Numbered from the stretch's first letter, positions 41,206-61,223 are shown. The stretch: DNA of 64,000 nucleotides from Pseudomonadota bacterium (GCA_003576805.1 QEVM01000002.1:5666-69665); one strand, 5' to 3'. A program made the numbers and translations. The notes: generated from the sequence alone by a model not told the origin.

Positions 41206-42170
41206 GCGGATTCCGGGTCGTCCAGCATCCCGAGCCGGCGCGCGCAGTCGTAGAGGAGCACGCGGTCGGAGCCGGGGCGGCGCGGCGCCTTCGGGTGCAC
41301 GGAGTCGGACGGCAGCCCGCCGGTGAGGTGGAGGAACTGCGCGGCGGCGTGCTTGTAGGCGGGGATGGGCTCGCGGAAGCCGACGTTGCCGAGGTGCTGG
41401 AGGTCGTCGTTGCGCGCGAGGAAGCCGACGTCGCCGGAGCCGAGCGCGGCGTCGCGCGCGGCGAAGCGCTCGGGCGCGAAGGTGGCGAGCCCGAGCAGGT
41501 AGTCGCTGCCGTAGACGACCAGGTCGATCGCGAGGTCGTTGCCGGTGTAGACGCTCCACGACGGCCGCGCGCGGTCGCGCGCCGCCAGCCGGCGCAGCTC
41601 GGTGGCGCGGTCGAGCGACGAGTGCTTCGCGCCGTGCAGCTCGGGGATCTCGAGCAGGCGCGCGAAGGTCTCGTCGTCCCAGATCTCGCCGTGCGGCGCG
41701 AAGCGCGGCGAGAGCTCGAAGGCGAGCGCGCCGTTCGCCGTCGCGGCCGCGACCTCCGCGTAGAGCGCCGCCTTCTGCGGCGCGGGGAGCAGCTTCATGC
41801 GCGGGCACTGCACGATCACCGGCGTGCCGCCGCGGCGCTCGATCGCGGCGATCGCCTCGCGGTACGCCGCGCCCGGATCCGCCGCGCCGAGCGCGTACGC
41901 GCCGGCGTAGAAGCCGCTGCCGGGCGGCAGCGCGCGGCGCGCGGCGTCGAGCACGGCCTCGCGCTCGGCGGGGGCGAGCAGGTCGCCGAAGCCGGTGTCC
42001 ATGTTCACGGCGACGTCGAGGCCGGCCTCGCGCGTGCGCGCGACGTGCGCCTCGAACGCGGCCCAGTCGATCGCGTCGTCGGCGCGGTACGGCAGCAGCG
42101 CGGCGGCGATGCCGTGCGGGCGCCGCAGCGACGCGCGCGCCCAGGTGTCCGTCAGCGTGGTCGGTCTCAT
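41175..42170 (-). CDS. DHDPS/N-acetylneuraminate-lyase-like TIM-barrel protein (divergent)
   Basis: ATG at 42170 gives MRPTTLTD. Has GIAAALLPYRADDAIDWAAFEAHVARTREAGLDVAVNMDTGFGDLL and a GAKHSS Lys context. The family assignment is moderate. Confidence 0.65.
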   Translation of the reverse strand: MRPTTLTDTWARASLRRPHGIAAALLPYRADDAIDWAAFEAHVARTREAGLDVAVNMDTGFGDLLAPAEREAVLDAARRALPPGSGFYAGAYALGAADPGAAYREAIAAIERRGGTPVIVQCPRMKLLPAPQKAALYAEVAAATANGALAFELSPRFAPHGEIWDDETFARLLEIPELHGAKHSSLDRATELRRLAARDRARPSWSVYTGNDLAIDLVVYGSDYLLGLATFAPERFAARDAALGSGDVGFLARNDDLQHLGNVGFREPIPAYKHAAAQFLHLTGGLPSDSVHPKAPRRPGSDRVLLYDCARRLGMLDDPESAWRERVEPYL

Positions 42171-43633
42171 GCGCGCGCCTTTCGCTTGGCGGCCTCGAGC
42201 GCGGCGTGCTCGGGGCGCTCGCGGTAGAAGCCGTCGAGCGGATAGCAGCCCGACACCAGCCCGTTGCGCGGCGCCGTCGTGCAGTCGCTGAAGGTGCGGC
42301 ACAGCTTGCCGCGCGCGAGCGCGCGGCCGGCGAGCGCGTCGGCCGGCAGCTCGGGATACGAGAGCGCCATGCGGCCGAGGCCGACGGCGTCGAACCAGCC
42401 GTCGCGCAGGCAGGCCTGCGCGACGTGCGAGATCCACTCCTGGAGGTACGTCCAGCCCGACGAGAGCACGATCGCGTCCGGCACCGCCTGCTTCAGCGCG
42501 CGCGCCGCGCCGAGCAGGCGCGCGACGCCGGCGAGCGGGTCCTCCGGCGGCGGATAGCCGTCGCTCGGCGGGAAGAGGGCGGGGCGCTGCGCGTGCGGCG
42601 CGTAGTACGGGCTCGCCGACGTGACGTTCACCCAGCGCACGCCGCGCGCGGCGAGCCCCTGCACGAACGCGATCGGCTCGGCGAGGTCGATGCGGCTCGG
42701 ATCCTCCGCGTCGATGCCGAAGCCGACGCCGTACGGCGTCGGGTGCGGCTCGGGCTCGCCGCGGCCGTGCGCGCCGCGCCGGTGCGGCACGACGTCGAAG
42801 AGCGAGAGCCGCACGCCGATCGCGAGCCGCGGCGCCGCGGCGCGCACGGCGTCGATCGTCGCGAAGGCGAGCCGCGTGCGGTCGGCGAGCGACGGGCCGC
42901 CCCAGCGGCCCGTGCGCGTGCGCGCCGAGAGGAACTCGTGCAGCAGGTAGCCGTGGCAGTGCTTCACGTCGACGAAGTCGTAGCCGCAGCGCTCGGCCAG
43001 CGCGGCGGCGCGCGCGAAGTCGTCGATCAGCGCGTCCACCTCGCCGTCGGCGAGCACGGCGGCGTCGTCGGCGATGCCGACGCGCGCGTCGAGGATCGGG
43101 TGCCGGTACGCGACGCGCGGCCGGCGGCGTCCCGGCTCCGGCACCGACCAGCGCCCGCTGTGCGTCAGCTGGAGGCCGACGACCGGCGCGGGATGCCCGC
43201 TGCGCCGCGCCTCGCCCAGCAGCGCCTCGCGCAGCGCCGCGAGCCCGCGCTCGGTGTGCGCGGCGGCGACGAGCTGGTGCGGGTTGGCGCGGCCGTCGGC
43301 GCGCACCGCGACCGCCTCGCCGCCCCAGATCCAGCCCGCGCCCGACGCACCGAAGCGTCGCCAGCGGCGCAGCGTCAGCTCGCCGGGATTGCCGTCCTCG
43401 CTGCCGTCCCAGCCCTCCATCGGCTGGACCGCGAAACGGTTGGGCGCGACGAGGTTCGACGCGCCGAGCGCGCCGCGCGGGCCGTCGCCGAGCGCGAGCG
43501 GCCGCGCGAGCGGCGCGTCCGCGCCGGTCTCGACGGCGTCGTCGCACGGCAGCTCCGCACCGATCGCGGCGAGCCGCGCGCGCAGCGCGGCGGGCGTGCG
43601 CAGCGACGCGACGCGCGGCCAACGCTCGCTCAC
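42167..43633 (-). CDS. NADH:flavin oxidoreductase, Old Yellow Enzyme-type TIM barrel
   Basis: GTG at 43633. Motifs NRFAVQPMEG, GLQLTHSGR and FDFVDVKHCHGYLLHEFLS. 488 aa. Confidence 0.85.
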   Translation of the reverse strand: MSERWPRVASLRTPAALRARLAAIGAELPCDDAVETGADAPLARPLALGDGPRGALGASNLVAPNRFAVQPMEGWDGSEDGNPGELTLRRWRRFGASGAGWIWGGEAVAVRADGRANPHQLVAAAHTERGLAALREALLGEARRSGHPAPVVGLQLTHSGRWSVPEPGRRRPRVAYRHPILDARVGIADDAAVLADGEVDALIDDFARAAALAERCGYDFVDVKHCHGYLLHEFLSARTRTGRWGGPSLADRTRLAFATIDAVRAAAPRLAIGVRLSLFDVVPHRRGAHGRGEPEPHPTPYGVGFGIDAEDPSRIDLAEPIAFVQGLAARGVRWVNVTSASPYYAPHAQRPALFPPSDGYPPPEDPLAGVARLLGAARALKQAVPDAIVLSSGWTYLQEWISHVAQACLRDGWFDAVGLGRMALSYPELPADALAGRALARGKLCRTFSDCTTAPRNGLVSGCYPLDGFYRERPEHAALEAAKRKARA

Positions 43634-44457
43634 GGCGCCTCCAGCTCCTGGAGCAGCGCGCGCAGCCACGCCGCGTCCTCCGCGAGCTTCGCCTCCACCG
43701 GCTTCGGCTCCCAGGAGAGGAACTCGATCGTGAGCGGGCCGGCGTAGCCCGCCGCGAACGCGGCGGCGAGGATCGCGCGGTAGTCGAGCACGCCGCGCGC
43801 GAGCGACGCGCCGGGCGGCATCGGCCCGCTGCCGTCCTTGGCCGGCTGCACGTTCTTCAGGTGGTAGTAGCGCGCGAGCGGAACGAGCCGGCGCGCGTCG
43901 TCGGGCTGCGCCGCGGCCTCGCGCTGCGGCAGCAGGTCGAGCACCTGGTAGTTGAGCGCGAAGTTCGGGCGAGCGACGGCGGCGAACAGGCGGTCGATAC
44001 GCGCGGGCGTGTCGGCAAACGAACCGGCGTGGCGCTCGACGACGACGTCGATGCCGGCGGGCGCGGCCGCGTCGCAGGCGGCGCGCAGCAGCGCGGCGAC
44101 CTCCGCGAAGCCCTCTTCGGGCGCGCCGGCGATCGGCTCGGCCCACACGCGCAGCAGCGGGGCGCCGAGCGCCTCGGCGATGCGCACCGCCTGCTCGGCC
44201 GCGCGCGCGTCCACCGCCGACGCACCGCCGACTTCGGCGCGGCCGAGGTACGAGCCGTACGCGATCACGCGCGCGCCGGCGTCGCGGACCGCGCGCGCCG
44301 TGGCGCGGTGCACGTCCAACGGCGCCGCGGGATCGACGTGCGGCGCGCGCGCGGTCGCCTCGATGCCGTCGAGCCCGCTCGCGACGGCGAGCTCGGCGAC
44401 CGCGGCGAGCGGGCGATCCATGGCGGAGATCGAGCACAGTCCCAGCAGATGTTTCAC
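43630..44457 (-). CDS. Sugar phosphate isomerase/epimerase (xylose-isomerase-like TIM barrel)
   Basis: GTG at 44457 (or ATG 44421). Its stop overlaps the OYE start (GTGA). The AP_endonuc_2-like pattern ends in PLTIEFL. Confidence 0.8.
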   Translation of the reverse strand: MKHLLGLCSISAMDRPLAAVAELAVASGLDGIEATARAPHVDPAAPLDVHRATARAVRDAGARVIAYGSYLGRAEVGGASAVDARAAEQAVRIAEALGAPLLRVWAEPIAGAPEEGFAEVAALLRAACDAAAPAGIDVVVERHAGSFADTPARIDRLFAAVARPNFALNYQVLDLLPQREAAAQPDDARRLVPLARYYHLKNVQPAKDGSGPMPPGASLARGVLDYRAILAAAFAAGYAGPLTIEFLSWEPKPVEAKLAEDAAWLRALLQELEAP

Positions 44458-45464
44458 GCGATCCGCTCCCAGTCCGCGAGCCGCACCTCGTGCGCGAGCG
44501 GCGCGCCCTGCGCGAGCCGCTCGATCTCGTCGATCGCGAGCGTCGCGAGGCGCTGCGTCTCGGCGCCCATCGCGCCCGCGACGTGCGGCGTCAGGAACAC
44601 GTTGGGCAGATCGTAGAGCGGCGACTCGGCGGGCAGGATCTCCGGATCGGTGGTGTCGATCACCGCGTCGATGCGCCCGCTCGCGAGCTCCGCCGCGAGC
44701 GCGTCGCCGTCCACCAGCGCGCCGCGCGCGGTGTTGACGAAGACGGCGCCGTCGCGCAGCAGCGCGAGGCGGCGCGCGTCGATCAGATGGCGCGTCGCGG
44801 GCAGCGACGGCGCGTGCAGCGAGACCACGTCGGAGCGGCGCAGCAGGTCGTCGATCTCCACCCACTCCGCGCCGAGCGACGCCGCCTCGGCGGCGGACAC
44901 GAACGGGTCGTGGAGGAGCAGCGCGAAGTCGAAGGCGCGCAGGCGCTCGAGCACGAGCCGGCCGATGCGCGAGGCGCCGACGACGCCGACCGTCTTCCCG
45001 TAGTTCCCGATCGCGGGCACCTCGCGCGGCCACATCCGGAAGCCGCGCACCTCGCGATAGAGCCGCTGCAGCCGGAACGCGCGCTTGCCGGCGAGCAGGA
45101 TCGCCGCGACGGTGAACTCCGCGACCGGCACCGCGTTGGCGGCCGCCGCCGACGACACGCGCACGCCGCGCGCCAGCACGTCGGGATCGACGTGGCCCTT
45201 CACCGTGCCGGCGGCGTGCACGACGGCGCGCAGCTTCGGCGCGCGGGCGAGCAGCGCCGCGTCGATGCGCGGCGAGCCCCAGCCCGTGAGCAGGATCTCC
45301 GCCTGCGGCAGCAGCGCGCCGGCGCGCGCGTCGTCGAAGCGGGCGAGCGGCGCGGCGTCGGGCACGTCGGCGATCGCGGCGAGGCGCGCGCGGTGCGCGT
45401 CGGTCATGAGCTCGGTCGTCAGCGCCGGCGCCATCGCCAGCACGACCGTCGGGCGCTGCGCCAC
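44454..45464 (-). CDS. D-isomer-specific 2-hydroxyacid dehydrogenase, NAD-binding
   Basis: 336 aa. Motifs GKTVGVVGASRIGRLV (Rossmann), NTARGALVD and TPHVAG. Confidence 0.9.
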   Translation of the reverse strand: MAQRPTVVLAMAPALTTELMTDAHRARLAAIADVPDAAPLARFDDARAGALLPQAEILLTGWGSPRIDAALLARAPKLRAVVHAAGTVKGHVDPDVLARGVRVSSAAAANAVPVAEFTVAAILLAGKRAFRLQRLYREVRGFRMWPREVPAIGNYGKTVGVVGASRIGRLVLERLRAFDFALLLHDPFVSAAEAASLGAEWVEIDDLLRRSDVVSLHAPSLPATRHLIDARRLALLRDGAVFVNTARGALVDGDALAAELASGRIDAVIDTTDPEILPAESPLYDLPNVFLTPHVAGAMGAETQRLATLAIDEIERLAQGAPLAHEVRLADWERIA

Positions 45465-45508: not shown

Positions 45509-47551
45509 GTGGATCGCGCGCTCGCCTGGCCCGCTTCGCTCCCGCCCGACGATCGCGAGCGCGCGCCGTACACCGGCTTCGCGCGCGCGCACTGGGAGCA
45601 CGTCGCGGACGCGCTGCTCGCCGGCGTGCGGCGCTTCGCGTCGCCGCGCGGCGCGCTGCTCGCGCTGCCCGGCGGCCCGACGAGCATGAACGGCGCGCGC
45701 TCCGACGGACTCGAAGGCTTCGCGCGCACGTTCCTGCTCGCGGCGTTCCGGCTGCGCGGCGCGGACGGGCGCGCGCCCGGCGATCTCGCCGCGCGCTGCG
45801 CCGACGGGCTCGCCGCGGGCACCGAGCCCGGCCACGACGAGAGCTGGCCGGCGATCACGCCGACCTCGCAGCCGATGGTCGAGGCGGCGTCGATCGCGCT
45901 CGCGCTCTTCGAGACGCGGCCGTGGATCTGGGACGCGCTGCCCGACGCGGTCAGGCAGCGCACCGTCGCGTGGCTCTCGACGTCGTTCACGGGGCCGGCG
46001 CACCCGAACAACTGGCTGCTGTTCCCCGTCGTGGTGGACGCGTTCCTCGCTTCCGTCGGCGCGCCGCACCGGCCCGATCTCGCGGAGCGCAACCTCGCGC
46101 TCGTCGACGCGATGTACCGGCGCGACGGCTGGTACAGCGACGGCCCGGGCCGCCACTACGACCACTACGTCGGCTGGGCCATCCACTTCTACACCGTCTG
46201 GTGGCTGCGGATGGGCGGCGCCGCGCGCGATCCGGCGCGCGCCGCCCGCACCCGCGCGCGCATCCGGCGCTTCCTCGAAGACTTCGAGCACCTCTTCGCC
46301 GCCGACGGCGCGCCGCTCCACCAGGGCCGCTCGCTGATCTACCGCTTCGCCGCCGCCGCGCCGCTGTGGGCGGGCGCGATCGCCGGCGCGACGCCGCTCG
46401 CTCCCGGCGCGACGCGCCGCATCGCGAGCGGCGCGCTCCGCCACTTCCTCGCGCACGGCGCGATCGAGGACGGCCTCCTCACGATGGGCTGGCACCGCGC
46501 GTTCCCCGCGATGGCGCAGCGCTACTCGGGGCCGGCGTCGCCGTACTGGGCGAGCAAGGGCTTCGCGGGGCTCGTGCTGCCGAGCGCGCACCCGGTGTGG
46601 ACGGACGTCGAGGCGCCGCTGGCGGTCGAGCGCGGCGACTTCTGCCGCGCGCTCTCCGAGCCCGGCTGGCTGGTGCGCGGCACGCGAGCCGACGGCGTCG
46701 TGCGCGTCGCGAACCACGGCAGCGATCACTTCCCCGCGATTCCGCTCGGCGCGAGCGCCGCGCACGGCGACGATCCCTTCTACCGCAAGCTCGGCTACGC
46801 CACGCACGCGGGCCCGTGTCTCGGCGCCGAGGCCGACGCCGCGGACTGCGACGCGCAGGTGTCGCTGCTCGACGAGGCGGGCGTCGCGTCGCGACGCGCG
46901 CGCATCCACCCGATCGCGTGCGCCGACCGCTTCGCGGCGTCGTGCTTCTTTCCGGGCGAGCGCCACGTGATCGGGACGCAGCCGTTCCCGCTCTGGCTGG
47001 AGCGCGTCGAGACGGTGTCGATCGCGCGCGGCGCGCTCGAGGTGCGCATCCACCACGCGATGGCGTACCGCCCGCGCCGGCTGCGCGACGGCGGCTACGC
47101 GCTCGCCGGCGACGCCGCGCCCGCCGTCGAGCGCGGGCCGGGCTGGTGCGCGGTGCGGCGCGCCGACGGGCTCGTGTCCGCCGTCGTCGGGCTGCACGGC
47201 TTCGGCGCGGCGGACGCCGTCCGCTTCGAGGACGCGAACGCGTTCGGCCGCCTCGCGGCGGCGCCGTTCCTGCTCGGCGCCGATCTCGTGGGGCCCGAAG
47301 CGGTCTACGTGTCGCTGCACGCGTTCGGCGCGCAGCCGTTCGAGCCGGACGCGCTGCGCGCCGAGGTGCGCGCGCTGCGGGTCCGCGGCCGCCTCGTCGA
47401 GCTCGCCTTCGCCGACGGCGAGCGCTGCCTCGTGCAGCTCGTCGCGGCGGATGCGATCGACGTCGCGCTCGGCGGCGTGCGCGTCGCGGGCGCGGTGCGC
47501 TTCGCGCGCCTCGCGGCCGACGGCGCGCTGTTCGTCCGGCTGGACGGATGA
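45509..47551 (+). CDS. DUF2264 domain protein (cytoplasmic, no signal peptide)
   Basis: 680 aa, GTG start. N-terminus ERAPYTGFARAHWEHVADALL...SDGLEGFARTFLLAAFRL matches the DUF2264 N-terminal pattern as I recall it. Confidence 0.8.
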   Translation: MDRALAWPASLPPDDRERAPYTGFARAHWEHVADALLAGVRRFASPRGALLALPGGPTSMNGARSDGLEGFARTFLLAAFRLRGADGRAPGDLAARCADGLAAGTEPGHDESWPAITPTSQPMVEAASIALALFETRPWIWDALPDAVRQRTVAWLSTSFTGPAHPNNWLLFPVVVDAFLASVGAPHRPDLAERNLALVDAMYRRDGWYSDGPGRHYDHYVGWAIHFYTVWWLRMGGAARDPARAARTRARIRRFLEDFEHLFAADGAPLHQGRSLIYRFAAAAPLWAGAIAGATPLAPGATRRIASGALRHFLAHGAIEDGLLTMGWHRAFPAMAQRYSGPASPYWASKGFAGLVLPSAHPVWTDVEAPLAVERGDFCRALSEPGWLVRGTRADGVVRVANHGSDHFPAIPLGASAAHGDDPFYRKLGYATHAGPCLGAEADAADCDAQVSLLDEAGVASRRARIHPIACADRFAASCFFPGERHVIGTQPFPLWLERVETVSIARGALEVRIHHAMAYRPRRLRDGGYALAGDAAPAVERGPGWCAVRRADGLVSAVVGLHGFGAADAVRFEDANAFGRLAAAPFLLGADLVGPEAVYVSLHAFGAQPFEPDALRAEVRALRVRGRLVELAFADGERCLVQLVAADAIDVALGGVRVAGAVRFARLAADGALFVRLDG

Positions 47552-49593
47552 CGGCGCACGACCCGGTCGGGCATCCGATCCTCGCCTACGAGCTGCGCCC
47601 GCGCGGCCCGGCGCCCGCCGGCATCCCGGCCGAGCCCCTCGTCGATCCGCACGCCGAGCGCGCCGCGCCCGGCGACTACGACGCGCGGCGCGCCGCCTTC
47701 CTCGACTTCGTGCGGCGCAGCCCGACGCCGTCGCACCTCGCCGCGGTCTTCCACGAGGTGGCGCGCGTCGCCGCGGGCGGGCCCGTGCACGCGCCGCTCT
47801 TCGAGGCGGCGCTCGACTACGTGGACGCGCGCCTCGACTGCGCCGACTTCGTCCAGCACGGCCTGCTGCGGCTGCTGCTCCAGCTCGCCGGCGAGCCGCG
47901 CCTGCCGCGCGCGCTGCTCGCGCGCGCGAAGCGCACGACGCTCGGCTTCAAGTACCACCCGTCCGAGCCCGGCGCGGACTCGCTCTGCACCTGGACCGAA
48001 AACCACCAGATTTTGTTCGCGGCGGCGGATCTCGTCGCGTCGGAGCGCTTCCCGGACGAGGTCTTCGCGAACACCGGCGAGCGCGGCCGCGAGCGCCGCG
48101 CGCGCGCGCGCGGCCGCGTGCTGCGCTGGCTCGACCTGCGTTTCCGCACCGGCTTCTCCGAGTGGCTCTCGCACGTCTACTACGACGAGGACCTCGTCGC
48201 GCTGCTGACGCTCGTCGACTTCTCGCTGGACGCGGAGATCCGCACGCGCGCGGCGATGGTCGCGGACGTCGTCCTGCTCGACATGGCGCTCCATCACTTC
48301 CGCGGCGCGTTCGCGTCCACGCACGGCCGCTCCTACGAGCGCGCCAAGAAGTGGACGCGCGAGGAGAACACCACCGACGCGGCGAAGCTGCTCTTCGGCG
48401 CCGGCTCGTTCGCGCGCAGCGAGAACCAGTGCGCCGTGTCGCTGGCGCTCTCGCCGCGCTACCGGCCGCCGCCCGCGATCCTCGCGATCGCCGCCGACGG
48501 CGAGCGAGCAGCCGTCACCGTCCGCCAGCGCATGGGCATCGCGCTCGGCGACCTCGCGCGCTTCGGGCTCGATCCGCGCCGCGACGAGGACGCCTTCGCG
48601 CTGCTCGCGATGGAGGCGTACACGGACCCGCGCACGATCGCGGCGTTCGTGCGCCTGCTCGAGCGCTGGCGCTGGTGGGACAACGCCTTCTTCGCGCCGT
48701 TCGCGGCGAGCCGCGCGCTGCTGCGCGGGCTCGCGCGCGTGCGCGCGCTGCCGCTCGTCGCGAAGGCGTTCGAGTGGGATCTCGCGCGCAACGCGCGGCC
48801 GGCGGTCGACCTCGTCACGCACCGCACGCCCGACACCCAGCTCTCGAGCGCGCTCGACTGGCGGCCCGGCTTCGGCGGCGACCAGCAGCACGTGTGGCAC
48901 GCGTCGCTCGGCGGCGACGCGGTCTGCTTCACGACGCATCCGGGGCCCATCTCCGCGCGCTCGCCGGGCTGGTGGACGGGGAGCGCCGTGCTGCCGCGCG
49001 TCGCGCAGGTGGAGAACGTCGCGATCGCGCTCTACCGCATCCACCGGCGTCCCGCGCTGCACGTCGCGAGCCGCCCTCTCTTCACGCACGCCTGGCTGCC
49101 GCGCGACCGCTTCGACGAGCTGCGCGAGCAGGGCGGCTGGCGCTTCGCGCGCCGCGGCGACGGCTACCTCGCGCTCTTCGCGAGCCCGGCGGCGCACTGG
49201 AACGAGTCGCCCGACGCGGGCGAGGACCGCGGCCGCGAGCTCGTCGCGCACGGCCGCGAGACGGTCTGGATTTGCGAGCTGGGACGCCGGGCTAGCGACG
49301 GACCCTTCGACGACTTCGCGAGCCGGATCGCGGCGGCGCCGCTCGCGGTCCGCGGGCTCGCGGTCGCGTACGAGTCGCCGTCCCAGGGCCGGCTCGAGTT
49401 CGCGTGGCGCGGCCCGCTGCGCCAGCGCGGCCGCGCGGTCCCGCTGCGCGACTTCCCCCGCTACGACGCGCCGTGGGTGCGCGCGGACTACCCGTCGGAG
49501 CGCATCGAGGTGCGCGCCGGCGGGCACGGGCTCGCGCTCGACTGGCCGCGCGGCGTCCGCGCGCTGCACGGGCCCGTCACAGAGGCGTGCTAG
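47548..49593 (+). CDS. Uncharacterised 681-aa protein, paralogue A (helical N-half plus beta-rich C-half; no signal peptide)
   Basis: ATG at 47548 overlaps the DUF2264 stop (ATGA). Clearly homologous to 53570..55831 (TENHQILF/SENHQIIF, SEWLSHVYYDEDL/DEWHSNVYYQKDV, LHHFRGAFASTHGRSY/LHNFRGAFAATRGRTY). Confidence 0.75.
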   Translation: MTAHDPVGHPILAYELRPRGPAPAGIPAEPLVDPHAERAAPGDYDARRAAFLDFVRRSPTPSHLAAVFHEVARVAAGGPVHAPLFEAALDYVDARLDCADFVQHGLLRLLLQLAGEPRLPRALLARAKRTTLGFKYHPSEPGADSLCTWTENHQILFAAADLVASERFPDEVFANTGERGRERRARARGRVLRWLDLRFRTGFSEWLSHVYYDEDLVALLTLVDFSLDAEIRTRAAMVADVVLLDMALHHFRGAFASTHGRSYERAKKWTREENTTDAAKLLFGAGSFARSENQCAVSLALSPRYRPPPAILAIAADGERAAVTVRQRMGIALGDLARFGLDPRRDEDAFALLAMEAYTDPRTIAAFVRLLERWRWWDNAFFAPFAASRALLRGLARVRALPLVAKAFEWDLARNARPAVDLVTHRTPDTQLSSALDWRPGFGGDQQHVWHASLGGDAVCFTTHPGPISARSPGWWTGSAVLPRVAQVENVAIALYRIHRRPALHVASRPLFTHAWLPRDRFDELREQGGWRFARRGDGYLALFASPAAHWNESPDAGEDRGRELVAHGRETVWICELGRRASDGPFDDFASRIAAAPLAVRGLAVAYESPSQGRLEFAWRGPLRQRGRAVPLRDFPRYDAPWVRADYPSERIEVRAGGHGLALDWPRGVRALHGPVTEAC

Positions 49594-49616
49594 GAGACGG
49601 CCTCGAAGGAGGCGGC

Positions 49617-50117
49617 ATGTCGGCCAAGAAGCGCGAGAAGAAGGCTCGGAAGAAGACGGAGAAGAAGCAGGCCAAGCAGGCGAAGAAGCAGGAGAAGCAG
49701 GCCCGGAAGACCGCGCGGGCGCAAGGCCCGGAGCCGGTGAAGACGGGCAAGGGCGCGACGCCGCTCGAGGTCGCGCAGGCCGTCGTCCCGCTGCTCCGCT
49801 CGGGCGCGGCGCACGAGGTCGAGAGCGCGTGGCTCGCGCCGGGCGTCGAGTCGGTCGAGGGCGCCGGCGTCGCGCTCGCGTGGTCCGGCAAGCCCGCCGT
49901 GCTCGCGAAGTACCGCGCGTGGGAGGCCGACCACGAGATCCACTCGATGCAAGTCGACGGCCCGTGGGTCGGCGCGACCGGCTTCGCGCTGCGCTACGCG
50001 ATCGACGTCACGCAGAAGTCGACCGGGCAGCGCTCGCAGATGGAAGAGATCGCGGTGTACACGGTGAAGAACGGCAAGATCGTGCGCGAGGAGTTCCACT
50101 TCCGCGTGCCGGGATAG
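49617..50117 (+). CDS. NTF2/SnoaL-like domain protein with a Lys-rich basic N-terminal tail
   Basis: ATG at 49617 with SD GAAGGAGG. Tail MSAKKREKKARKKTEKKQAKQAKKQEKQARKTARAQ. The C-terminus ...EIAVYTVKNGKIVREEFHF is SnoaL-like. Confidence 0.65.
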   Translation: MSAKKREKKARKKTEKKQAKQAKKQEKQARKTARAQGPEPVKTGKGATPLEVAQAVVPLLRSGAAHEVESAWLAPGVESVEGAGVALAWSGKPAVLAKYRAWEADHEIHSMQVDGPWVGATGFALRYAIDVTQKSTGQRSQMEEIAVYTVKNGKIVREEFHFRVPG

Positions 50118-50141
50118 CGGCGCGCACGCGAGCGCGTCCCT

Positions 50142-51833
50142 CTACGCGCCCCGACGCGCCGCCAGCTTCAGCGACTCCGCCCGCGCGCGCTCCTTGCGAT
50201 CGAGCGCGCGCAGGAGCTGGATGCGCACCCTGCGCCGCGCGCTCTGCATGCTGCCGCGCTCGCCCGCGAGGTCGCGCAGGAAGGCGGGCGAGTCGACGTC
50301 GAGCGGCGGCCAGCGGAAGCTGCCGTCCGGCTCCGCGCGCACGAACACGAGCCCGGACTCGTCTCCCTGCACGAGCCGCCAGTCGGGCCTCGCGTAGAAC
50401 CACGCGATCAGCTGCCGCGCGTGGAACGTCGGGTTCAGCAGCACCGTTCCGAACCGGTACTTGGCGTCGAGCCGCAGGAACTCGCGCGGCGTGACGAAGC
50501 GCAGCGCGGCGAGCTTCTTCGGTCCGTAGATCTCGAGGCGGCCGTCCACGAGCACCTCGTAGCGCGGGTGGAGCCGCCAGCTCAGATAGCCGCCGTCCCA
50601 CATGTGGTGCGCGATGGGGCCCGGCGGGCGCTCGCGCTCGATCCAGTCCGTGGCGAGCGCGGGCACGTAGAGGCCGACCACGCCGACGCCGCGCTCGTGG
50701 ACGGTGCCGATGCGCGCGTGGTAGCTGCCTCGCGCGACGTCGACCGCCGCGATCAGCAACGCGGCCGCGACCGCCGCGTTCGCCGCGTGACGCGCCCACG
50801 CGGAGCGCATGCGCCCGTCGAGCCACTCGTTCGCGTTGCGGACGAACAGCGGCGCGGCCACGATCGCGAACAGCGCGAGGTTGCGGTTCGCCATCAGCCC
50901 CAACGCCAGGAAGGCCGCGAAGGCGAGCAGGTCGGCGCTGCGGTCGCGGTTGCGGCGCCAGTTGGCCGCGATCGCCGCGGCGCAGGCGAGCGCGAGCGCC
51001 GCCGGCGCGACCGCCATCGCGCGCGGCACGGCCGGGTGCCAGAGCGGCACGAGCTCGAGGTTGTATCCCCGTCCCATGCCGTCGTCGCCGCCCGGCCCGA
51101 TCATGCCGAGCTGGCGCAGCGGGTAGAGCGCTCCGTCGGCGAAGTTCGGATTCGCGAACGACGCCAGGCACGCGAGCACGACGACGCGCAGCAGCCGCTG
51201 CGCGCGGCCGCTGCGCGCGGGCTCGCGCGCGGCGCGGAGCTGCTCCGAGACGAGCTCGATCGCACAGAGCGCGATGCCGAGCGCGAACAGTCCGTGGACG
51301 TTCGCCCAGAGCAGCTGGAGCGGCACGATCGCGTACACCAGCGCGTCGTTGCGGCGCCGGTCGCGTGCGAGGAGCGCCACGACGCCCGCGAGGAGCACGA
51401 ACGAGAGCAGCTCCGGTCGGTCGCGGAAGCGCTCGCTCGCGACGAGCAGCATCGCGCCGAGCCCCAGCCCGGCGACGAAAGGGCGCTCGCGCCGCCAGCC
51501 CACGGTGGCGAGGATCGCGACGAGCAGCGCCACCAGCGCGGCCTTCACGACGACGACGCCCGCGTGATCGGCGACGGAGTGGACGCCCGCGAGCGCGAGC
51601 TGGAACAGCCAGTGCACGTCGATCCAGCGCGCGTCGGGCACGCTGTAGGTGAAGACGTCGGCGCGCGGCACCGCGCCCGTCTCGGCGATCCAGTAGCCGG
51701 TGCGCAGGTGCCACCAGTAGTCGGTGCTGAGGATCTTCTCGAGGCCGGTGGCGACCGCCAGCGCCAGCAGCGCGGCGCCCACGCCGAAGACGATCCACCG
51801 GCTCGGTGCGTCGGAGCGGAGCGGCGAGTTCAT
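50142..51833 (-). CDS. Polytopic membrane protein with a large C-terminal soluble domain (GT-C-like glycosyltransferase fold suspected)
   Basis: ATG at 51833. 563 aa with more than 10 predicted TM helices. First loop YWWHLRTGYWIAETGAVPRADVFTYS. Function not established. Confidence 0.65.
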   Translation of the reverse strand: MNSPLRSDAPSRWIVFGVGAALLALAVATGLEKILSTDYWWHLRTGYWIAETGAVPRADVFTYSVPDARWIDVHWLFQLALAGVHSVADHAGVVVVKAALVALLVAILATVGWRRERPFVAGLGLGAMLLVASERFRDRPELLSFVLLAGVVALLARDRRRNDALVYAIVPLQLLWANVHGLFALGIALCAIELVSEQLRAAREPARSGRAQRLLRVVVLACLASFANPNFADGALYPLRQLGMIGPGGDDGMGRGYNLELVPLWHPAVPRAMAVAPAALALACAAAIAANWRRNRDRSADLLAFAAFLALGLMANRNLALFAIVAAPLFVRNANEWLDGRMRSAWARHAANAAVAAALLIAAVDVARGSYHARIGTVHERGVGVVGLYVPALATDWIERERPPGPIAHHMWDGGYLSWRLHPRYEVLVDGRLEIYGPKKLAALRFVTPREFLRLDAKYRFGTVLLNPTFHARQLIAWFYARPDWRLVQGDESGLVFVRAEPDGSFRWPPLDVDSPAFLRDLAGERGSMQSARRRVRIQLLRALDRKERARAESLKLAARRGA

Positions 51834-51960
51834 GGATCGGCCTCCGTGTCCGAAGCGGGGGCTGAACCTAGCGTCCAGCGCGGCGCACGGAATCGAGTGC
51901 GCAGTTCGCTCGCAGCGCGCGCTGCGCGTCGCTCGCTTGCGCGCGCGCGCGTTCGGCGAG

Positions 51961-53565
51961 ATGCTGCGCGGCGCGATGCGCGCTCGCGCCCGACTCGTCT
52001 GCTTCGCGCGACTCGCCGCGCTGCTCGCGGCGGCAGGCGCCGCGCTCGCGTGCGGCGCGGGCGAGGGCGATCTCGCGGGCGTCGATCCCGCCGCGTTCGC
52101 CGACGCCGCGCAGGGCGCCGCGGCGCCGGCGTCGGTGATCGCGCCGCTCGCGGCGGACGCCGCGCCCGCGCGCAAGCCGAACGTGGTGCTGATCGTGGCC
52201 GACGACCTCGGCTGGGGCGACCTCGGGTCGTACGGCGGCGCGCTCGCGACGCCGTCGATCGACCGGCTCGCCGCGGAGGGCGTGCGCTTCACCGACTTCT
52301 ACGCGAGCGCGCCGGTCTGCTCGCCGTCGCGCGCGGGCCTGCTCACCGGCCGCTATCCGCTGCGCACCGGCATCAGCTACATCGTGTTCGCGGCCGAGGC
52401 GTCGTTCCGGCAGCGGCTCTCGCTGCTGGCCGCGAAGCTCGGCACGCGGCTCGGCGCCAGCGACTTCCACGACTCGTTCGTCGCCGGGCTGCCCGCTTCC
52501 GAAATCACGATCGCCGAGGCGCTGCGCGTCGCGGGCTACGCGACCGGCATGGTCGGCAAGTGGCACCTCGGCGACTTCTCGCACGACCGCCAGTACCTGC
52601 CCACGCGCCACGGCTTCGACTTCTTCGAGGGGCTGCCGCACTCGAACGACGAGTTCCCGGTCGCGTACTGGCGCGGCGAGCAGGAGCAGACGCCCGACAT
52701 CGGCCTCGCCCAAGAGGGGATCACCGCGGACCTGACGCGCGCGGCGATCGAGTTCGTCGAGGCGAACCGCGACCGCCCGTTCTTCCTCTACTTCGCGCAC
52801 AAGAACGTGCACCTGCCGCTCTACCCCGCGGAGCGCTTCCGCGGCGCGTCGCCGGCCGGCGCGTACGGCGACTCGGTCGCGGAGCTCGACGCGAGCGTCG
52901 GCGAGATCGTGGCGGCGCTCGCGCGGCTCGGCCTGCGCGACGACACGCTCGTGCTGTTCACGAGCGACAACGGGCCCTGGTTCCAGGGCAGCGCCGGCGG
53001 GCTGCGCGGGCGCAAGGGAATGCCGTTCGAGGGAGGAGTGCGCGTGCCGCTCCTCGCGTCGTGGCCCGGCGCGCTGCCGGCGGGCCGCGTCGTCGGCGCG
53101 CCGGCGATGAACATCGACGTCTTCCCGACGCTGCTCGCGCGCGCCGGCCTGGCCGCGCCGCGCGACCGCGCGATCGACGGCCGCGACCTCTGGCCGCTGC
53201 TCACGGGCGCTGCGTCGGCGTCGCCGCACGAGGCGCTCTTCTTCTTCCACGACAAGCAGCTCGACGGCGTGCGCGCCGGCGCCTGGAAGTACTACCGGCA
53301 CGTGAACCGCCTGTGCTGGCCGCTGCCGTACGACAAGCCCGGCACGCTGCCCGGCGAGCAGACCGCCGGCTACGTGCACGCCGACGCGAAGACGGGCCGC
53401 AGCGCGAACCTGCTCGACGCGGGCCCGATGCTCTACGACCTCGCGCGCGATCCCGGCGAGGCGTACGACGTCGCCGAGCGCCGGCCCGACGAAGCCGCGC
53501 GCCTCGAAGCGCTCGCCGCCGCCTGGGAGGCGGCGTTCGTCGCGAACCCGCGCGGCTGGCGCTGA
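51961..53565 (+). CDS. Lipoprotein sulfatase (Cys-type, formylglycine-dependent)
   Basis: Lipobox AGAALACG. Motifs PNVVLIVADDLGWGDLG, CSPSRAGLLTGRYP (CxPxR) and GKWHLG. Confidence 0.92.
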   Translation: MLRGAMRARARLVCFARLAALLAAAGAALACGAGEGDLAGVDPAAFADAAQGAAAPASVIAPLAADAAPARKPNVVLIVADDLGWGDLGSYGGALATPSIDRLAAEGVRFTDFYASAPVCSPSRAGLLTGRYPLRTGISYIVFAAEASFRQRLSLLAAKLGTRLGASDFHDSFVAGLPASEITIAEALRVAGYATGMVGKWHLGDFSHDRQYLPTRHGFDFFEGLPHSNDEFPVAYWRGEQEQTPDIGLAQEGITADLTRAAIEFVEANRDRPFFLYFAHKNVHLPLYPAERFRGASPAGAYGDSVAELDASVGEIVAALARLGLRDDTLVLFTSDNGPWFQGSAGGLRGRKGMPFEGGVRVPLLASWPGALPAGRVVGAPAMNIDVFPTLLARAGLAAPRDRAIDGRDLWPLLTGAASASPHEALFFFHDKQLDGVRAGAWKYYRHVNRLCWPLPYDKPGTLPGEQTAGYVHADAKTGRSANLLDAGPMLYDLARDPGEAYDVAERRPDEAARLEALAAAWEAAFVANPRGWR

Positions 53566-53569
53566 GCGC

Positions 53570-55831
53570 TCAGCGCACGTCGAAGACGACGCGCTGGCCC
53601 TTCTCGAAGCGGTGGTAGAGCGCGGCGCCGGTCTCGGGATCCTGGGCGGTGAGGTCCAGGTCGAGGTGCTCGATGCGCGTCCACGGATTGTCCATGCGCG
53701 GGTAGTCCGTGAGCGCGACCGGCGCGCCGTCCACCAGGAACGGGCCCGTCCACGAGAACTCGAGCGCGCCCTGGCTCGGCGACTCGTAGCGCACCTCGAA
53801 GAACGGCCCGCGCGAGCCGCGCGGGATGTCGGTGGTGACCGGCGTCACGCTGACCGCCGCGTTGCGCACCGCCACCTGGAAGGCGGCGAACGAGCCCGAC
53901 TCGGACAGGCTGCCCAGCTCGACGATCCACACGTTGTCGGGTCCGCCGGGCGCGACGAGGTCGAAGGGCTGCAGCATGCCGTTCGTCGCGACGTTCGGGC
54001 CGTGGTCCACGAACTCGGCGAGGCGCCACGAGTAGAGCGCGATGTAGCCGTCGCCGAAGCGGCCGAAGGTCCAGTGGCCGTCGCGCACGACCTCGTCGAA
54101 GTGGTCCTGCGGGAAGTAGGCGTGCGTGTACGGCTCGTAGCGCGTGAGCGGGCGGAACACGCCCGGCGCGACGGTGTACTGCGGCGCGTAGAGGTGGATG
54201 CCGACGTTCTCGTGCTGCGCGCTGCGCGGCTGCGACGCGGTGCCGGTCCAGCTCCCCGGCTCGCCGTCGTCGCTCCAGTCGAGCGTCTGGCGCGGCGCGG
54301 TGCCCGGGTGCGTGGTGAAGACCAGCGCGTTCGGGTCGAAGGTCGCCTGCCACGAGTGGTACTGGTTGCCGCGCGAGCCCTTCCGGTGGTCCTGCGCGGT
54401 GGACATCAGGTAGTCCGCCGTGCGGTAGGTGTAGGTGTTCACCTCTTCGTTCAGCGGCGACGACGCGGCGTGCGGCAGCGCCTGCGCGGCGATCTGCGCG
54501 AAGGCGAGCGAGCCGACCGCGTCGCGGATCTCGACGTACGGCTGGAACAGCTCGGAGTCCCAGAGCGAGTACTTGTCCGCCACCTCGAAGACCATCGGCA
54601 GCACCGGCCACGTCGTCAGCGCGCTCATCGCCCAGTAGATGGGCAGGTTCGCCTCGTCGCGGTAGTCGAAGCCGTACGGGGCGGGCGGCGGCGGGATCGC
54701 GCCGGTCTCGTCGATCACGACGTTGCCGTCCTCGTCGCGCGGCAGCTCCGCGAACTCGTCGATCGGGATGCCCATGCGCTCGCGGTCCACGAAGGGCGTC
54801 TCGCTGCGGCCGGCGTTCTCGATCAGCTTCGGCAACGCGTACTTCTTCGCGCGCGCGAACAGCACCGCGCCGGCGTCGGTGCGCGACTCGTACGGGTAGG
54901 GCGACTCGTCGAAGAGCAGCTTCTGCAGCCCGTAGGTGTCGTCGTGCAGCGACGTCATCTTGTCCTTCTTGTAGGTGCGCCCGCGCGTCGCGGCGAAGGC
55001 GCCGCGGAAGTTGTGGAGCGCGAGGTCGAGCAGCACGCGGTCGAGCAGCATCGCCGCGCGCGTCGCGATCTCCGGCTCGTCGGCGTGCTCGACGAGCGTC
55101 AGCAGCGGCGTCACGTCCTTCTGGTAGTAGACGTTGCTGTGCCACTCGTCGAAGCCGAAGCGCGCCTTGTGGTCGAGCCACCAGAGGATCCGCTCGCGCG
55201 CGTGCGCGCGGTGCTCCTCGCCGGTCATGCCGGTGGTGGTGAAGGTGCGGTCGGGCCAGGTCTGGCCGGCCAGGTACTCGAGCGTGTGGAAGATGATCTG
55301 GTGGTTCTCGCTCCAGTACCACATGTCGTCGACGATCCCGGGCGGCGTCGGCTGCGTGTACCAGAACTTGAAGGCGAGGATCGCGTCCTCGGTCTTCTGC
55401 CACAGCTCGGGAACGACGACGGCGCGCGGGTGGTCGCGATAGCCGAGCAGCGCGTTGATCAGGTAGAGGACGTCGAAGTCGCTGGTGTCCTCGAAGGTCG
55501 AGATCTTGGTGAAGATCGCGTCCCAGGCGTCGGCGCCGAACGCGCCTTCGGGCGCCTGGTAGCCGGGGTCGCGGAGCTCGCGCTCCATGTGCGCGATCGC
55601 GCTGAGCGGGCTGCCGGTCGCGAGCGCGCCGGTCGCGTGCTCGAGGAACGCCTGGCGCCGCGGCGCGAACTCCGCCTCGTCCAGCGTGCCCGGGCCGACC
55701 AGCCCGCCGGGCGGGAGCTGGTCGCAGGCGGGAGCGGCGACGAGCGCCAGCAGCAGGCCGCCGAGCACGCGCGAGCGCCGCGCGCCGGCTCGGCCGGAGC
55801 ATCGTTCGAGCAATCGCCGCCGAATCGTCAC
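53570..55831 (-). CDS. Uncharacterised 753-aa lipoprotein, paralogue B of 47548..49593
   Basis: Signal/lipobox LLLALVAAPAC. Collinear homology with paralogue A through both halves. Confidence 0.75.
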   Translation of the reverse strand: MTIRRRLLERCSGRAGARRSRVLGGLLLALVAAPACDQLPPGGLVGPGTLDEAEFAPRRQAFLEHATGALATGSPLSAIAHMERELRDPGYQAPEGAFGADAWDAIFTKISTFEDTSDFDVLYLINALLGYRDHPRAVVVPELWQKTEDAILAFKFWYTQPTPPGIVDDMWYWSENHQIIFHTLEYLAGQTWPDRTFTTTGMTGEEHRAHARERILWWLDHKARFGFDEWHSNVYYQKDVTPLLTLVEHADEPEIATRAAMLLDRVLLDLALHNFRGAFAATRGRTYKKDKMTSLHDDTYGLQKLLFDESPYPYESRTDAGAVLFARAKKYALPKLIENAGRSETPFVDRERMGIPIDEFAELPRDEDGNVVIDETGAIPPPPAPYGFDYRDEANLPIYWAMSALTTWPVLPMVFEVADKYSLWDSELFQPYVEIRDAVGSLAFAQIAAQALPHAASSPLNEEVNTYTYRTADYLMSTAQDHRKGSRGNQYHSWQATFDPNALVFTTHPGTAPRQTLDWSDDGEPGSWTGTASQPRSAQHENVGIHLYAPQYTVAPGVFRPLTRYEPYTHAYFPQDHFDEVVRDGHWTFGRFGDGYIALYSWRLAEFVDHGPNVATNGMLQPFDLVAPGGPDNVWIVELGSLSESGSFAAFQVAVRNAAVSVTPVTTDIPRGSRGPFFEVRYESPSQGALEFSWTGPFLVDGAPVALTDYPRMDNPWTRIEHLDLDLTAQDPETGAALYHRFEKGQRVVFDVR

Positions 55832-55940: not shown

Positions 55941-58061
55941 GTGTCCGATCCTAGCGGCATGGCTCCCGAGCAAGCGCGCCCGACGCCCCGCCCCGACTGG
56001 TTCCTCAATCGCGAGCTCTCGTGGCTCGCCTTCAACCGCCGGGTGCTCGACGAGGCGCAGGACGCCGGCAACCCGCTGCTCGAACGCGTGAAGTTCCTTT
56101 CGATCGTGGACTCCAACCTCTCGGAGTTCTTCGAGATCCGCGTCGCCGGTCTGCGCCAGCAGGCGGAGGCCGGCATCACCGTGCGCGAGCCGGACGGCAT
56201 GACGCCCGCGCAGGCGCTCGAGGCGATCGGCCGCGTCGCGCGCGAGCAGGTGCGCGAGCTGTACGCCTGCTGGAACGACGGGCTCAAGCCCGCGCTCGAG
56301 AAGGAGGGCGTCGACTTCCCGCACCCGGAGCGCCTGCCCGCCGCGCAGCAAACCTGGCTGCGCGAGCACTTCCACCGCGAGATCTTCCCGGTCCTGACGC
56401 CGATCGCGCTCGACCCCGCGCACCCGTTCCCGTTCGTCGCGAGCGGCAGCCTCAACATCGCCGCGCTGCTCGACACCGACGACCCGGAGGAGCCGGTGCG
56501 GCTCGCGGTCGTGCAGGTGCCGCGCGTGATGGCGCGCGTGTTCCGCGTGCCGGGCGGCGAGGCCGGCCGGCGCACCTACGTGTTCCTCGCCGACGTGATC
56601 CGCTGGCAGCTCCCCGAGCTGTTCGCCGGCGCGAAGATCCTCGACCACACCGCCTTCCGCGTGACGCGCAACTCGAACCTGTACGTCGACGAGGAGGAGG
56701 TCGAGAACCTGCTCACCGCGATCGAGCAGGAGCTGCGGCGCCGCCGCCGCGGCGATCCGGTGCGGCTCGAGGTGCGCGCACCCGTCGGCGAGCGGCTGCG
56801 CCAGGAGCTGCTCGAGGTGCTCGACCTCGAGGCGCGCGATCTGTACGAGTGCGCGGGCCCGGTCAACATCTCGCGCCTCTCCCAGCTCCTCGACTACGAG
56901 TCGGACGCGCGGCTCGCCGCGCCGCGCTTCGTCGCGCCGCTGCACCCCGCGCTGCGCGAGCCGACCAAGCTGTTCCCGACGATCCGCGCCGGCGACCTGC
57001 TGCTGCACCACCCGTTCGACTCGTTCGAGAGCGTGGTGGACTTCCTCGAGCAGGCGGCGCAGGACCCGCGCGTGCTCGCGATCAAGCAGACGCTCTACCG
57101 CACGACCGAGGACTCGCCGATCGCGCGCGCGCTGCTCGAGGCCGCCGAGCGCGGCAAGCAGGTGACCGCGCTGGTCGAGATCAAGGCGCGCTTCGACGAG
57201 GAGAAGAACATCCGCTGGGCGCGCCGCATGGAGGAGGCGGGCGTCCAGATCGTGTACGGCCTGGTCGGCCTGAAGACGCACTGCAAGCTGATGCTCGCGG
57301 TGCGGCGCGAAGAGGACGGCATCCGCCGCTACGCGCACATCGGCACGGGCAACTACAACCACACGACCGCGCGCCAGTACACCGACTTCGGCCTGTTCAC
57401 CGCCGACCCGGACGTCACCGCCGAGGTGGCGAGCGTCTTCAATTTGCTGACGAGCCTCTCGTCGCGCGAGCGCTGGACGCACCTCATGGTGGCGCCCTTC
57501 ACGCTGCGCACGGGCCTGCTCGACCGCATCGGGCGCGAGGCCGAGAACGCGCGCGCCGGCCGGCCGGCCTCGATCGTCGCGAAGCTCAACGCGATCCAGG
57601 ACGAGGAGATCATCGAGGCGCTCTACAGCGCGTCGCAGGCGGGCGTCGAGATCGACCTCGTGGTGCGCGGCATCTGCACGCTGCGGCCCGGCGTGCCGGG
57701 GCTCTCCGAGCGCATCCGCGTGCGCTCCATCGTGGACCGCTTCCTCGAGCACACGCGCGTCGTGCGCTTCGAGAACGCCGGCGCGCGCGAGCTGTGGATC
57801 GGCAGCGCCGACTGGATGCCGCGCAACCTGCGCGGCCGCGTCGAGGTGATGTGCCGGATCCGCTCCGAAGCGGTCGTGCAGCGTCTCGAGGAGATCCTCG
57901 ACGTCTACCGGCACGACGACGTGAAGGCGCGCGAGCTCGGCCCCGACGGCGTGTACCGCCGCGTGCCGGCGTCGACGGGCGTCCGCGCGCAGGAGTGGCT
58001 GATGCAGCGCGCGCTCGCGGCCGCGGCGCTGCCGATCGCGGCCACGCGCCCCGGAGAGTGA
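55941..58061 (+). CDS. ppk: Polyphosphate kinase 1
   Basis: 706 aa. Has FLNRELSWLAFNRRVLDEAQDAGNPLLERVKFLSIVDSNLSEFFEIRVAGL and two PLD-like C-domains (HCKLMLAVRRE). The start is GTG 55941 or ATG 55959. Confidence 0.95.
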   Translation: MSDPSGMAPEQARPTPRPDWFLNRELSWLAFNRRVLDEAQDAGNPLLERVKFLSIVDSNLSEFFEIRVAGLRQQAEAGITVREPDGMTPAQALEAIGRVAREQVRELYACWNDGLKPALEKEGVDFPHPERLPAAQQTWLREHFHREIFPVLTPIALDPAHPFPFVASGSLNIAALLDTDDPEEPVRLAVVQVPRVMARVFRVPGGEAGRRTYVFLADVIRWQLPELFAGAKILDHTAFRVTRNSNLYVDEEEVENLLTAIEQELRRRRRGDPVRLEVRAPVGERLRQELLEVLDLEARDLYECAGPVNISRLSQLLDYESDARLAAPRFVAPLHPALREPTKLFPTIRAGDLLLHHPFDSFESVVDFLEQAAQDPRVLAIKQTLYRTTEDSPIARALLEAAERGKQVTALVEIKARFDEEKNIRWARRMEEAGVQIVYGLVGLKTHCKLMLAVRREEDGIRRYAHIGTGNYNHTTARQYTDFGLFTADPDVTAEVASVFNLLTSLSSRERWTHLMVAPFTLRTGLLDRIGREAENARAGRPASIVAKLNAIQDEEIIEALYSASQAGVEIDLVVRGICTLRPGVPGLSERIRVRSIVDRFLEHTRVVRFENAGARELWIGSADWMPRNLRGRVEVMCRIRSEAVVQRLEEILDVYRHDDVKARELGPDGVYRRVPASTGVRAQEWLMQRALAAAALPIAATRPGE

Positions 58062-58089
58062 GCGCGGCGCGCGGCCGCGCGCGCCCGCG

Positions 58090-61164: not shown

Positions 61165-61223
61165 CGGCGCCTCGCAGGTCGGGCTCGCGGCGATCCTAGC
61201 TTGCGCGCGGAGCGCGCAGCCAG

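Follow-up and report, generated by a model that had tools for sequence, protein, structure and literature searches.

Two paralogous genes in a 64,000-nucleotide stretch of a Pseudomonadota bacterium genome (GCA_003576805.1 QEVM01000002.1:5666-69665; this whole stretch is hereafter called the window) encode large proteins, here named A and B, which belong to a new protein family that we term family X. Its predicted fold and its genomic surroundings suggest that family X is a carbohydrate-active family whose members may cleave a glycosidic bond by elimination, or handle the unsaturated or keto-sugar end that results, as part of a pathway of sugar oxidation/reduction; we put the probability of this reading at about 50%. 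The family is without a sequence model, solved structure or literature of its own, and fold and context place it beside known lyases and oxidative sugar pathways. A first-pass annotation of the window had described A and B as cytoplasmic and exported homologues resembling polysaccharide lyases (PLs), and had linked them with a neighbouring sulfatase in the stepwise breakdown of a sulfated glycan.

Genes were called from third-position GC content (GC3) in this window of ~73% G+C, part of a metagenome-assembled contig (locus tags DCC71_), and annotated with Pfam and NCBIfam over 13.4-64 kb. Both open reading frames (ORFs), A and B, were recovered in frame with the coding GC3 signal at the positions listed in Table 1. 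The claimed collinear homology was borne out by BLASTP, which aligned the two proteins with 241/697 identities (35%; E 8e-103) over ~650 collinear residues, and all five of the shared blocks quoted previously lie within the alignment: TENHQILF/SENHQIIF, SEWLSHVYY/DEWHSNVYY, HHFRGAFASTHGRSY/HNFRGAFAATRGRTY, W(H/Q)A..FTTHPG and HAWLPRDRFDE/HAYFPQDHFDE (A/B). A is 50-60% identical to homologues from Chloroflexota, Myxococcota and one archaeal-binned genome versus 35% to B; the duplication that produced A and B is therefore ancient.

The N-terminus of A (MTAHDPVGHP...) has no hydrophobic leader. B begins with a basic n-region and a hydrophobic core that runs into LGGLLLALVAAPAC, followed by D, that is, a lipobox ...LVAAPAC with Asp at +2. 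The B signal peptide thus ends in the lipobox Cys (RRSRVLGGLLLALVAAPAC, then D) with atypical residues at -3/-2 (A, P); homologues show ...LAGC, ...AAAC or ...LAAC at this position. Signal peptides and lipoboxes were called by eye in a sample, namely one in three of the B-clade and one in five of the A-clade sequences among the 240 homologues retrieved: almost all full-length B-clade proteins have a signal peptide with a terminal Cys, and none of the A-clade proteins do. The predicted assignment of A to the cytoplasm and of B to the lipoproteins therefore recurs across whole clades, which makes the compartment difference an old property of the two clades and not a local accident.

When 1.84 billion cluster representatives were searched with a family X profile, 4097 clusters (50% identity) were recovered at E<=1e-3, of which 1310 also reach E<=1e-30, and the family is widespread in Chloroflexota, Myxococcota, Binatia and Acidimicrobiia. 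Every named member is labelled hypothetical, and the source names of its fusion proteins are equally uninformative. Neither A nor B matched any Pfam model at E<=1 or any NCBIfam model, including Hepar_II_III, Hepar_II_III_N, Lyase_8, Alginate_lyase and DUF4962; searches of PDB sequences by phmmer and profile hmmsearch (A, B and a 40-sequence profile) returned nothing relevant, and the literature on DUF2264, DUF993 and new PL families held nothing about family X. Two candidate relatives were discarded: the DUF2264 protein encoded next to A (hhalign against the X profile, probability 0.2%) and a 760-aa gene product following X in a Binatia locus (L006), which is an unrelated DUF4215 Cys-rich repeat protein. 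Homologues with 37-58% identity are also found in archaeal-binned contigs of Candidatus Bathyarchaeia (L087) and of a Promethearchaeota metagenome-assembled genome (MAG; P0176), reflecting either inter-domain transfer or binning error.

An AlphaFold2 model of B built from a 40-sequence alignment (pLDDT 90.9, pTM 0.91) agrees with the layout proposed previously, with an all-helical N-half (~50-456; helices 52-456) and a beta-rich C-half (strands 464-752). An alpha/alpha toroid followed by a beta-sandwich is the architecture of PL5, PL8, PL12, PL15, PL17, PL21 and PL33 lyases. When the full-length model was compared with the PDB by Foldseek, the three significant matches were polysaccharide lyases, each of which shares the domain order of the model: PL15 Atu3025 (3afl, 3a0o; E 4.5e-6, probability 0.99), PL8 chondroitin AC lyase (1rwa; E 5.5e-4) and PL33 BT4410 (8r72; E 2e-3). 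Two results qualify these matches. TM-scores to these lyases are only ~0.2, with poor global superposition, and the N-domain modelled alone (pLDDT 90.8) had no significant Foldseek match in the PDB (best E 0.33), its weak matches being generic alpha/alpha toroids such as complement TED domains and drimenyl diphosphate synthase, a terpene cyclase, with PL5 A1-III only at rank 48. The likeness to toroid-plus-sandwich lyases claimed by the first-pass annotation is thus upheld by the top full-length matches and not by superposition or by the N-domain, so that no PL family can be assigned. The modelled architecture of X is lyase-like without placing it in any PL family.

More than 50 residues are invariant in family X, including clusters of His, Tyr, Arg and Glu. 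E175-N176-H177, E229, Y235, R285, Y331 and H570 (B numbering) are retained even among members with ~30% identity, and the conserved Asn-His and Tyr singled out in the earlier reading of A and B are thus invariant across the family. Similar to PL15 Atu3025 (3A0O/3AFL), X proteins have ~700-770 aa with a helical toroid preceding the beta-sandwich, and their invariant His/Tyr pair, H177-Y235, is separated by 58 residues, a lead from sequence alone, compared with a catalytic His-Tyr distance of 53-55 residues in eight PL15 enzymes (PMC11921355). Enzymes of PL15 act as exolytic finishers, which would suit the cytoplasmic copy A. Different from PL15 and other toroid lyases, X has no detectable sequence homology to them and its toroid alone is unmatched; it also lacks an Arg at His+3, and its genomic partners are oxidoreductases, not KdgF, DehR or KdgK.

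The genomic context of X was surveyed in five loci found by exact-protein look-up, 80 genome loci around B-type genes and 80 metagenome loci around A-type genes. Neighbours were scored by tblastn with window-derived queries and by unbiased six-frame ORF clustering, with Pfam applied to part of the clusters (Table 2); more than 3 kb of flank was present upstream in 54 and downstream in 59 of the 80 B-type loci. A-type genes typically close a conserved operon, DUF993-OYE-ThuA-Gfo-GPH-X, which is the commonest A-type context and is complete and co-directional in eight loci (L121, L122, L126, L130, L132, L146-148). B-type genes adjoin OYE-like and DUF993 genes, with or without a 2-hydroxyacid dehydrogenase and a TIM barrel. 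One or both of the first two occur in 20/80 B-type loci, often abutting X, in Myxococcota, Binatia, Acidimicrobiia and Terriglobales, and no other partners of family X are as conserved as these two. The Binatia locus L006 has 2-hydroxyacid dehydrogenase, TIM barrel, OYE-like, DUF993 and X all in one direction, and the window holds the same four-gene cassette at 41175..45464(-); its 2-hydroxyacid dehydrogenase gene is syntenic in L001, L006, L009, L010, L034 and L088-L090. The GH88 genes abutting X are those of L020, L057 and L086, and some contexts (L002, L091 and the GH88-X fusion P0292) are uninformative. Taken together, the ~170 loci and the domain fusions described below point to carbohydrate catabolism and not to a sulfatase partnership.

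Table 2. Genes found near family X in the sampled loci.
Neighbour	B-type loci	A-type loci
GPH/MFS_2 transporter	3/80 (26-27% identity)	48/80, directly upstream of X
Gfo/Idh/MocA oxidoreductase	Pfam-confirmed cluster in 8 loci (no tblastn score)	34/80
ThuA (scored in A-type only)		29/80
OYE-like flavoprotein	16/80	21/80 (15 at >=48% identity)
DUF993	19/80	9/80
AP_endonuc_2 TIM barrel	9/80	2/80
2-Hydroxyacid dehydrogenase	8/80	3/80
SDR	~6 (Pfam-confirmed cluster)	13/80
PfkB sugar kinase (scored in A-type only)		10/80
GH88	4/80, 3 abutting X	0/80
Sulfatase	4/80 (29-30% identity), none adjacent	1/80
DUF2264	0/80	1/80 (L099)

Domain fusions were sought with Pfam in 30 long family X representatives (50%-identity clusters). 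At least six carry a fused GH88 (unsaturated uronyl hydrolase) domain, which in the four fusions with coordinates is N-terminal in P0255 and P0297 and C-terminal in P0292 and P0365. Fusion in both orders is classic evidence of consecutive steps, and the substrates of GH88 are 4,5-unsaturated uronate ends. Other representatives carry SLH cell-wall anchors (two), Exo_endo_phos (two), GDPD with PLAT (one), PI-PLC (one) or InlB B-repeats (one). The phosphodiester/lipid-headgroup hydrolase fusions (Exo_endo_phos, GDPD with PLAT, Ca-dependent PI-PLC) are found in P0256, P0374, P0381 and one member of alignment A3. They hint at an action of some X members on glycosyl-inositol-phosphate lipids or on other glycans with phosphodiester linkages, and a role on inositol-phosphate glycolipids that contain glucuronate, for example the glycosylinositol phosphorylceramides (GIPCs) of plants or fungi, is conceivable.

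In the window, the DUF2264 gene is translationally coupled to A, its stop codon (TGA) overlapping the start of A as ATGA. The DUF2264 protein, which has an additional C-terminal domain of ~300 aa, matches the glucuronate dehydratases 9o4u and 9nwf (E ~5e-23) and 8oi4 (~1e-22) in the PDB. The "GH154" family has been reclassified as uronate-sugar dehydratases that convert saturated GlcA ends into unsaturated ends for GH88 (PMC12269599). Among the sampled loci, a DUF2264 gene leading into A occurs only in the window and in L099, where the 2-hydroxyacid dehydrogenase and TIM-barrel genes are divergent exactly as in the window. By PDB comparison, DUF993 resembles class I aldolases/dehydratases of the dihydrodipicolinate synthase (DHDPS) type, a superfamily that includes 2-keto-3-deoxygluconate (KDG) aldolases and 5-keto-4-deoxyglucarate dehydratase. 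The OYE-like flavoprotein aligns to OYE ene-reductases over approximately its first two thirds: residues ~72-297 of its 500 aa align to OYE models and structures (340-400 aa), leaving the N-terminal 70 and C-terminal 200 residues unaccounted for, and this long form is the version conserved beside family X across phyla. In the A-type operons, the Gfo partner is similar to aldose oxidoreductases, to the C-glycoside 3-oxidases of DgpA type and to a "glucuronide-3-dehydrogenase".

In the pathway whose chemistry, substrate and step order we infer from these observations, the lipid-anchored B would act on a substrate outside the cytoplasm, the fragments would be imported by a GPH-type or other permease, and the cytoplasmic A would finish them, helped in this window by the coupled DUF2264 uronate dehydratase, which would turn saturated uronate ends into unsaturated ones. 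The 2-hydroxyacid dehydrogenase, the TIM-barrel isomerase/eliminase, the OYE-like ene-reductase and the DHDPS-like aldolase/dehydratase would then convert a keto-deoxy or enone sugar acid to central metabolites. The sulfatase and DUF2264 may extend this locus to a sulfated, uronate-containing substrate. A bolder and tentative proposal is that X might be the founder of a new glycoside-cleaving class, be it a new PL family or an eliminase of non-Koshland type, and might supply the missing bond-breaking step of ThuAB/Gfo oxidative sugar catabolism.

One of the closest known parallels to such a cascade is the chondroitin pathway of Bacteroides caccae polysaccharide utilization locus (PUL) 25, comprising a PL, GH88 and GH154 (BcGDH) (PMC12269599). 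In both cases a lyase or lyase-like protein is paired with DUF2264/GH154, and X members are fused or adjacent to GH88, with a sulfatase nearby in the window. Unlike PUL25, the scanned part of the window lacks SusC/D and GH88, X is unrelated to PL35, and DUF2264 is limited to the window and L099.

Among the other explanations, a less likely one is that X is not a uronate lyase and is instead the missing cleaving enzyme of 3-keto-glycoside catabolism. Gfo or ThuA would oxidise an imported glycoside at C3, X would eliminate or hydrolyse the aglycone, the OYE-like enzyme would reduce the enone, and DUF993, SDR and PfkB would process the product. This scheme fits the A-type operons best, as their commonest context contains all the genes from DUF993 to X and their Gfo partner resembles DgpA and the glucuronide-3-dehydrogenase; OYE enzymes do reduce enones. 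The products of ThuAB are 3-keto-disaccharides, and which genes serve their further cleavage has been reported as unknown (PMC8121099). Cleavage of glycosides by oxidation and elimination is established elsewhere with TIM-barrel eliminases (PMC10628242, PMC7676230, 10.1101/2024.03.25.586180). Similar to ThuAB/Gfo-Idh-MocA 3-keto-glycoside pathways (the rhizobial thu operon, DgpA-type C-/O-glycoside oxidation-elimination systems and levoglucosan LgdA-B), many A-type loci have ThuA, Gfo and a sugar transporter directly upstream of X, and the window cassette includes a xylose-isomerase-like TIM barrel. However, none of these pathways includes a toroid-plus-sandwich protein, an OYE-like enzyme or DUF993, the known eliminases being TIM barrels or DUF1080 proteins, and the window is devoid of ThuA and Gfo. 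Moreover, B-type proteins are extracytoplasmic and their genes often lack Gfo/ThuA neighbours, and the GH88 fusions together with DUF2264 indicate 4,5-unsaturated uronates.

We consider it unlikely that X is a heparinase- or alginate-lyase-type enzyme of sulfated-glycan breakdown, in which B would work with the adjacent lipoprotein sulfatase and A would finish the desulfated oligosaccharides. The local evidence that inspired this model was reproduced. The sulfatase carries the Cys-type motif CSPSR and its own ...AALAC lipobox, so that it and B are both lipoproteins, and its relatives in the PDB are arylsulfatase A, GalNAc-6-sulfatase and carrageenan sulfatases. Its TGA (53563-65) lies 4 bp from the reverse-strand TGA of B (53570-72). 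The lyase-like fold of X and the DUF2264 uronate dehydratase beside A, as in the chondroitin PUL, also favour the model. Across the sampled loci, however, a sulfatase occurs within 10 kb of only 4/80 B-type and 1/80 A-type genes, never adjacent and with 29-52% identity, and L088, L009 and the P0133 contig, all syntenic with the window, keep A and B without one, so that neither the sulfatase as a functional partner nor, in consequence, the sulfated-glycan logic of the pair is supported. In addition, the convergent orientation implies no co-transcription, and, as already reported for this DNA, no formylglycine-generating enzyme (FGE) is found: neither an FGE nor an anSME domain is present among the genes of the scanned 50 kb (13.4-64 kb). 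A perfect 18-nt palindrome at 53559..53576 (GCGCTGAGC/GCTCAGCGC) spans both convergent stop codons; it could form a hairpin common to the two transcripts, with a terminator or attenuator function in both directions, or mark the junction of the inserted block.

Arrangements in related genomes suggest how this locus was assembled. L088, whose A is 74% identical, has a leftward run of 2-hydroxyacid dehydrogenase, TIM barrel, OYE-like and DUF993 genes, then A rightward, B leftward, ppk rightward, and GPH, xth, NUDIX and clpP leftward. The window has this order with additional genes in two places (45509..53565 in the window versus 5456..7571 in L088): DUF2264 between the cassette and A, and the genes for SnoaL, the membrane protein and the sulfatase between A and B. 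On the P0133 contig, A is followed by SnoaL, a leftward gene for a 449-aa protein, leftward B and ppk, with neither sulfatase nor DUF2264, which suggests stepwise accretion. Its unannotated 449-aa gene (no Pfam match) occupies the same slot between A and B as the 563-aa membrane protein gene. In L009, rightward B and leftward A are followed by the cassette, with no sulfatase. These arrangements indicate that A, B and the cassette form a conserved core and that DUF2264 and the sulfatase are the most recent, lineage-specific additions.

It is very unlikely that X is a binding, scaffold or other alpha/alpha-toroid protein (terpenoid-cyclase- or thioester-domain-like) or acts on a non-carbohydrate substrate: the weak best matches of the N-domain, the lack of a CAZy-type sequence signature and the uninformative loci L002 and L091 would suit such a role, but the invariant His/Tyr/Arg/Glu clusters argue for catalysis, and the GH88 fusions, the operons of sugar transporters, oxidoreductases and kinases conserved across phyla, and the restriction of significant full-length structural matches to lyases all speak against it.

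The genes surrounding A and B are listed in Table 1. The neighbourhood described by the first-pass annotation was correct as to the sulfatase and incomplete in other respects, leaving unmentioned the DUF2264 gene upstream of A, the ppk gene divergent from B and the four-gene cassette; its "GT-C-like" label for the membrane protein between A and the sulfatase was not confirmed by Pfam or NCBIfam. The APC-family permease gene that ends the cassette operon was conserved beside family X in 0/87 loci.

Table 1. Genes around A and B (positions counted from the first nucleotide of the window).
Feature	Coordinates	Strand	Evidence or remark
APC-family permease	39850..41205	-	Pfam/NCBIfam; last gene of cassette operon
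DUF993, DHDPS-like class I aldolase/dehydratase fold	41175..42170	-	PF06187 E 9e-7; PDB DHDPS matches
OYE-like flavin oxidoreductase (Oxidored_FMN), 500 aa	42167..43669	-	Pfam
Xylose-isomerase-like TIM barrel (AP_endonuc_2), cassette gene	43630..44457	-	Pfam
D-2-hydroxyacid dehydrogenase, cassette gene 1	44454..45464	-	Pfam/NCBIfam; divergent from DUF2264-A
DUF2264/"GH154"-family protein, 680 aa	45509..47551	+	PF10022, 377 bits, E 7.7e-113; no signal peptide
Paralogue A, 681 aa, predicted cytoplasmic family X member	47548..49593	+	Identical to NCBI DCC71_00620
SnoaL-like small protein	49587..50117	+	Pfam; 3' of A
Polytopic membrane protein, 563 aa, soluble C-terminal part	50142..51833	-	No Pfam/NCBIfam match
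Cys-type S1 sulfatase lipoprotein	51958..53565	+	PF00884 E 4e-59; convergent with B; start uncertain, longest ORF from 51724
Paralogue B, predicted lipoprotein family X member	53570..55831	-	753 aa from GTG (747 aa by NCBI start)
Polyphosphate kinase (ppk)	55941..58061	+	Pfam/NCBIfam; divergent from B
Glycoside-pentoside-hexuronide (GPH)-family symporter	58090..59469	-	TIGR00792, 243 bits, above cut-off
Exonuclease III (xth)	59466..60329	-	Followed by NUDIX and ClpP genes

At least three related MAGs (L001, L088, L089) have the block of ppk1, GPH symporter, exonuclease III, small ORF, NUDIX and ClpP genes (55941..61811) in synteny, which places the locus in a stable chromosomal neighbourhood and not on a mobile island. 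For ppk, xth, NUDIX and clpP, the synteny reflects local gene order only and was rejected as a functional link. The nearby Exo_endo_phos gene was likewise rejected as a partner: this domain is fused to X elsewhere, but here it belongs to the housekeeping exodeoxyribonuclease III.

Several genes farther away in the window are worth recording. A protein resembling the N,N-dimethylformamidase beta subunit (DMFA2_C, E 4.5e-91; 23671..25911(+)) is encoded directly 3' of a molybdopterin oxidoreductase (21782..23674(+)), with SnoaL_4 and thioesterase genes upstream of the pair, an unusual catabolic cluster unrelated to X. Two probable exported surface proteins are a right-handed beta-helix protein bearing a PEP-CTERM sorting signal (13471..14739(+)) and a protein with two lamin-tail domains (37726..38886(+)). 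The gene at 30064..31395(-) encodes a fusion of an alpha/beta-hydrolase domain with the catalytic domain of an adenylate/guanylate cyclase, which is an uncommon architecture.

Family X is large and confidently folded, and the operon that houses it is among the best-conserved uncharacterised sugar operons in bacteria from soil and sediment. Its reaction, once assigned, would annotate thousands of genes and add a CAZy-type family, and might explain how the oxidation products of ThuA/Gfo are cleaved, a step reported to be genetically unassigned (PMC8121099). The window offers a natural experiment in this respect, in which cytoplasmic and exported copies share one cassette and are accompanied by a recently acquired uronate dehydratase and sulfatase, and it thereby narrows the panel of substrates to be considered for the family.

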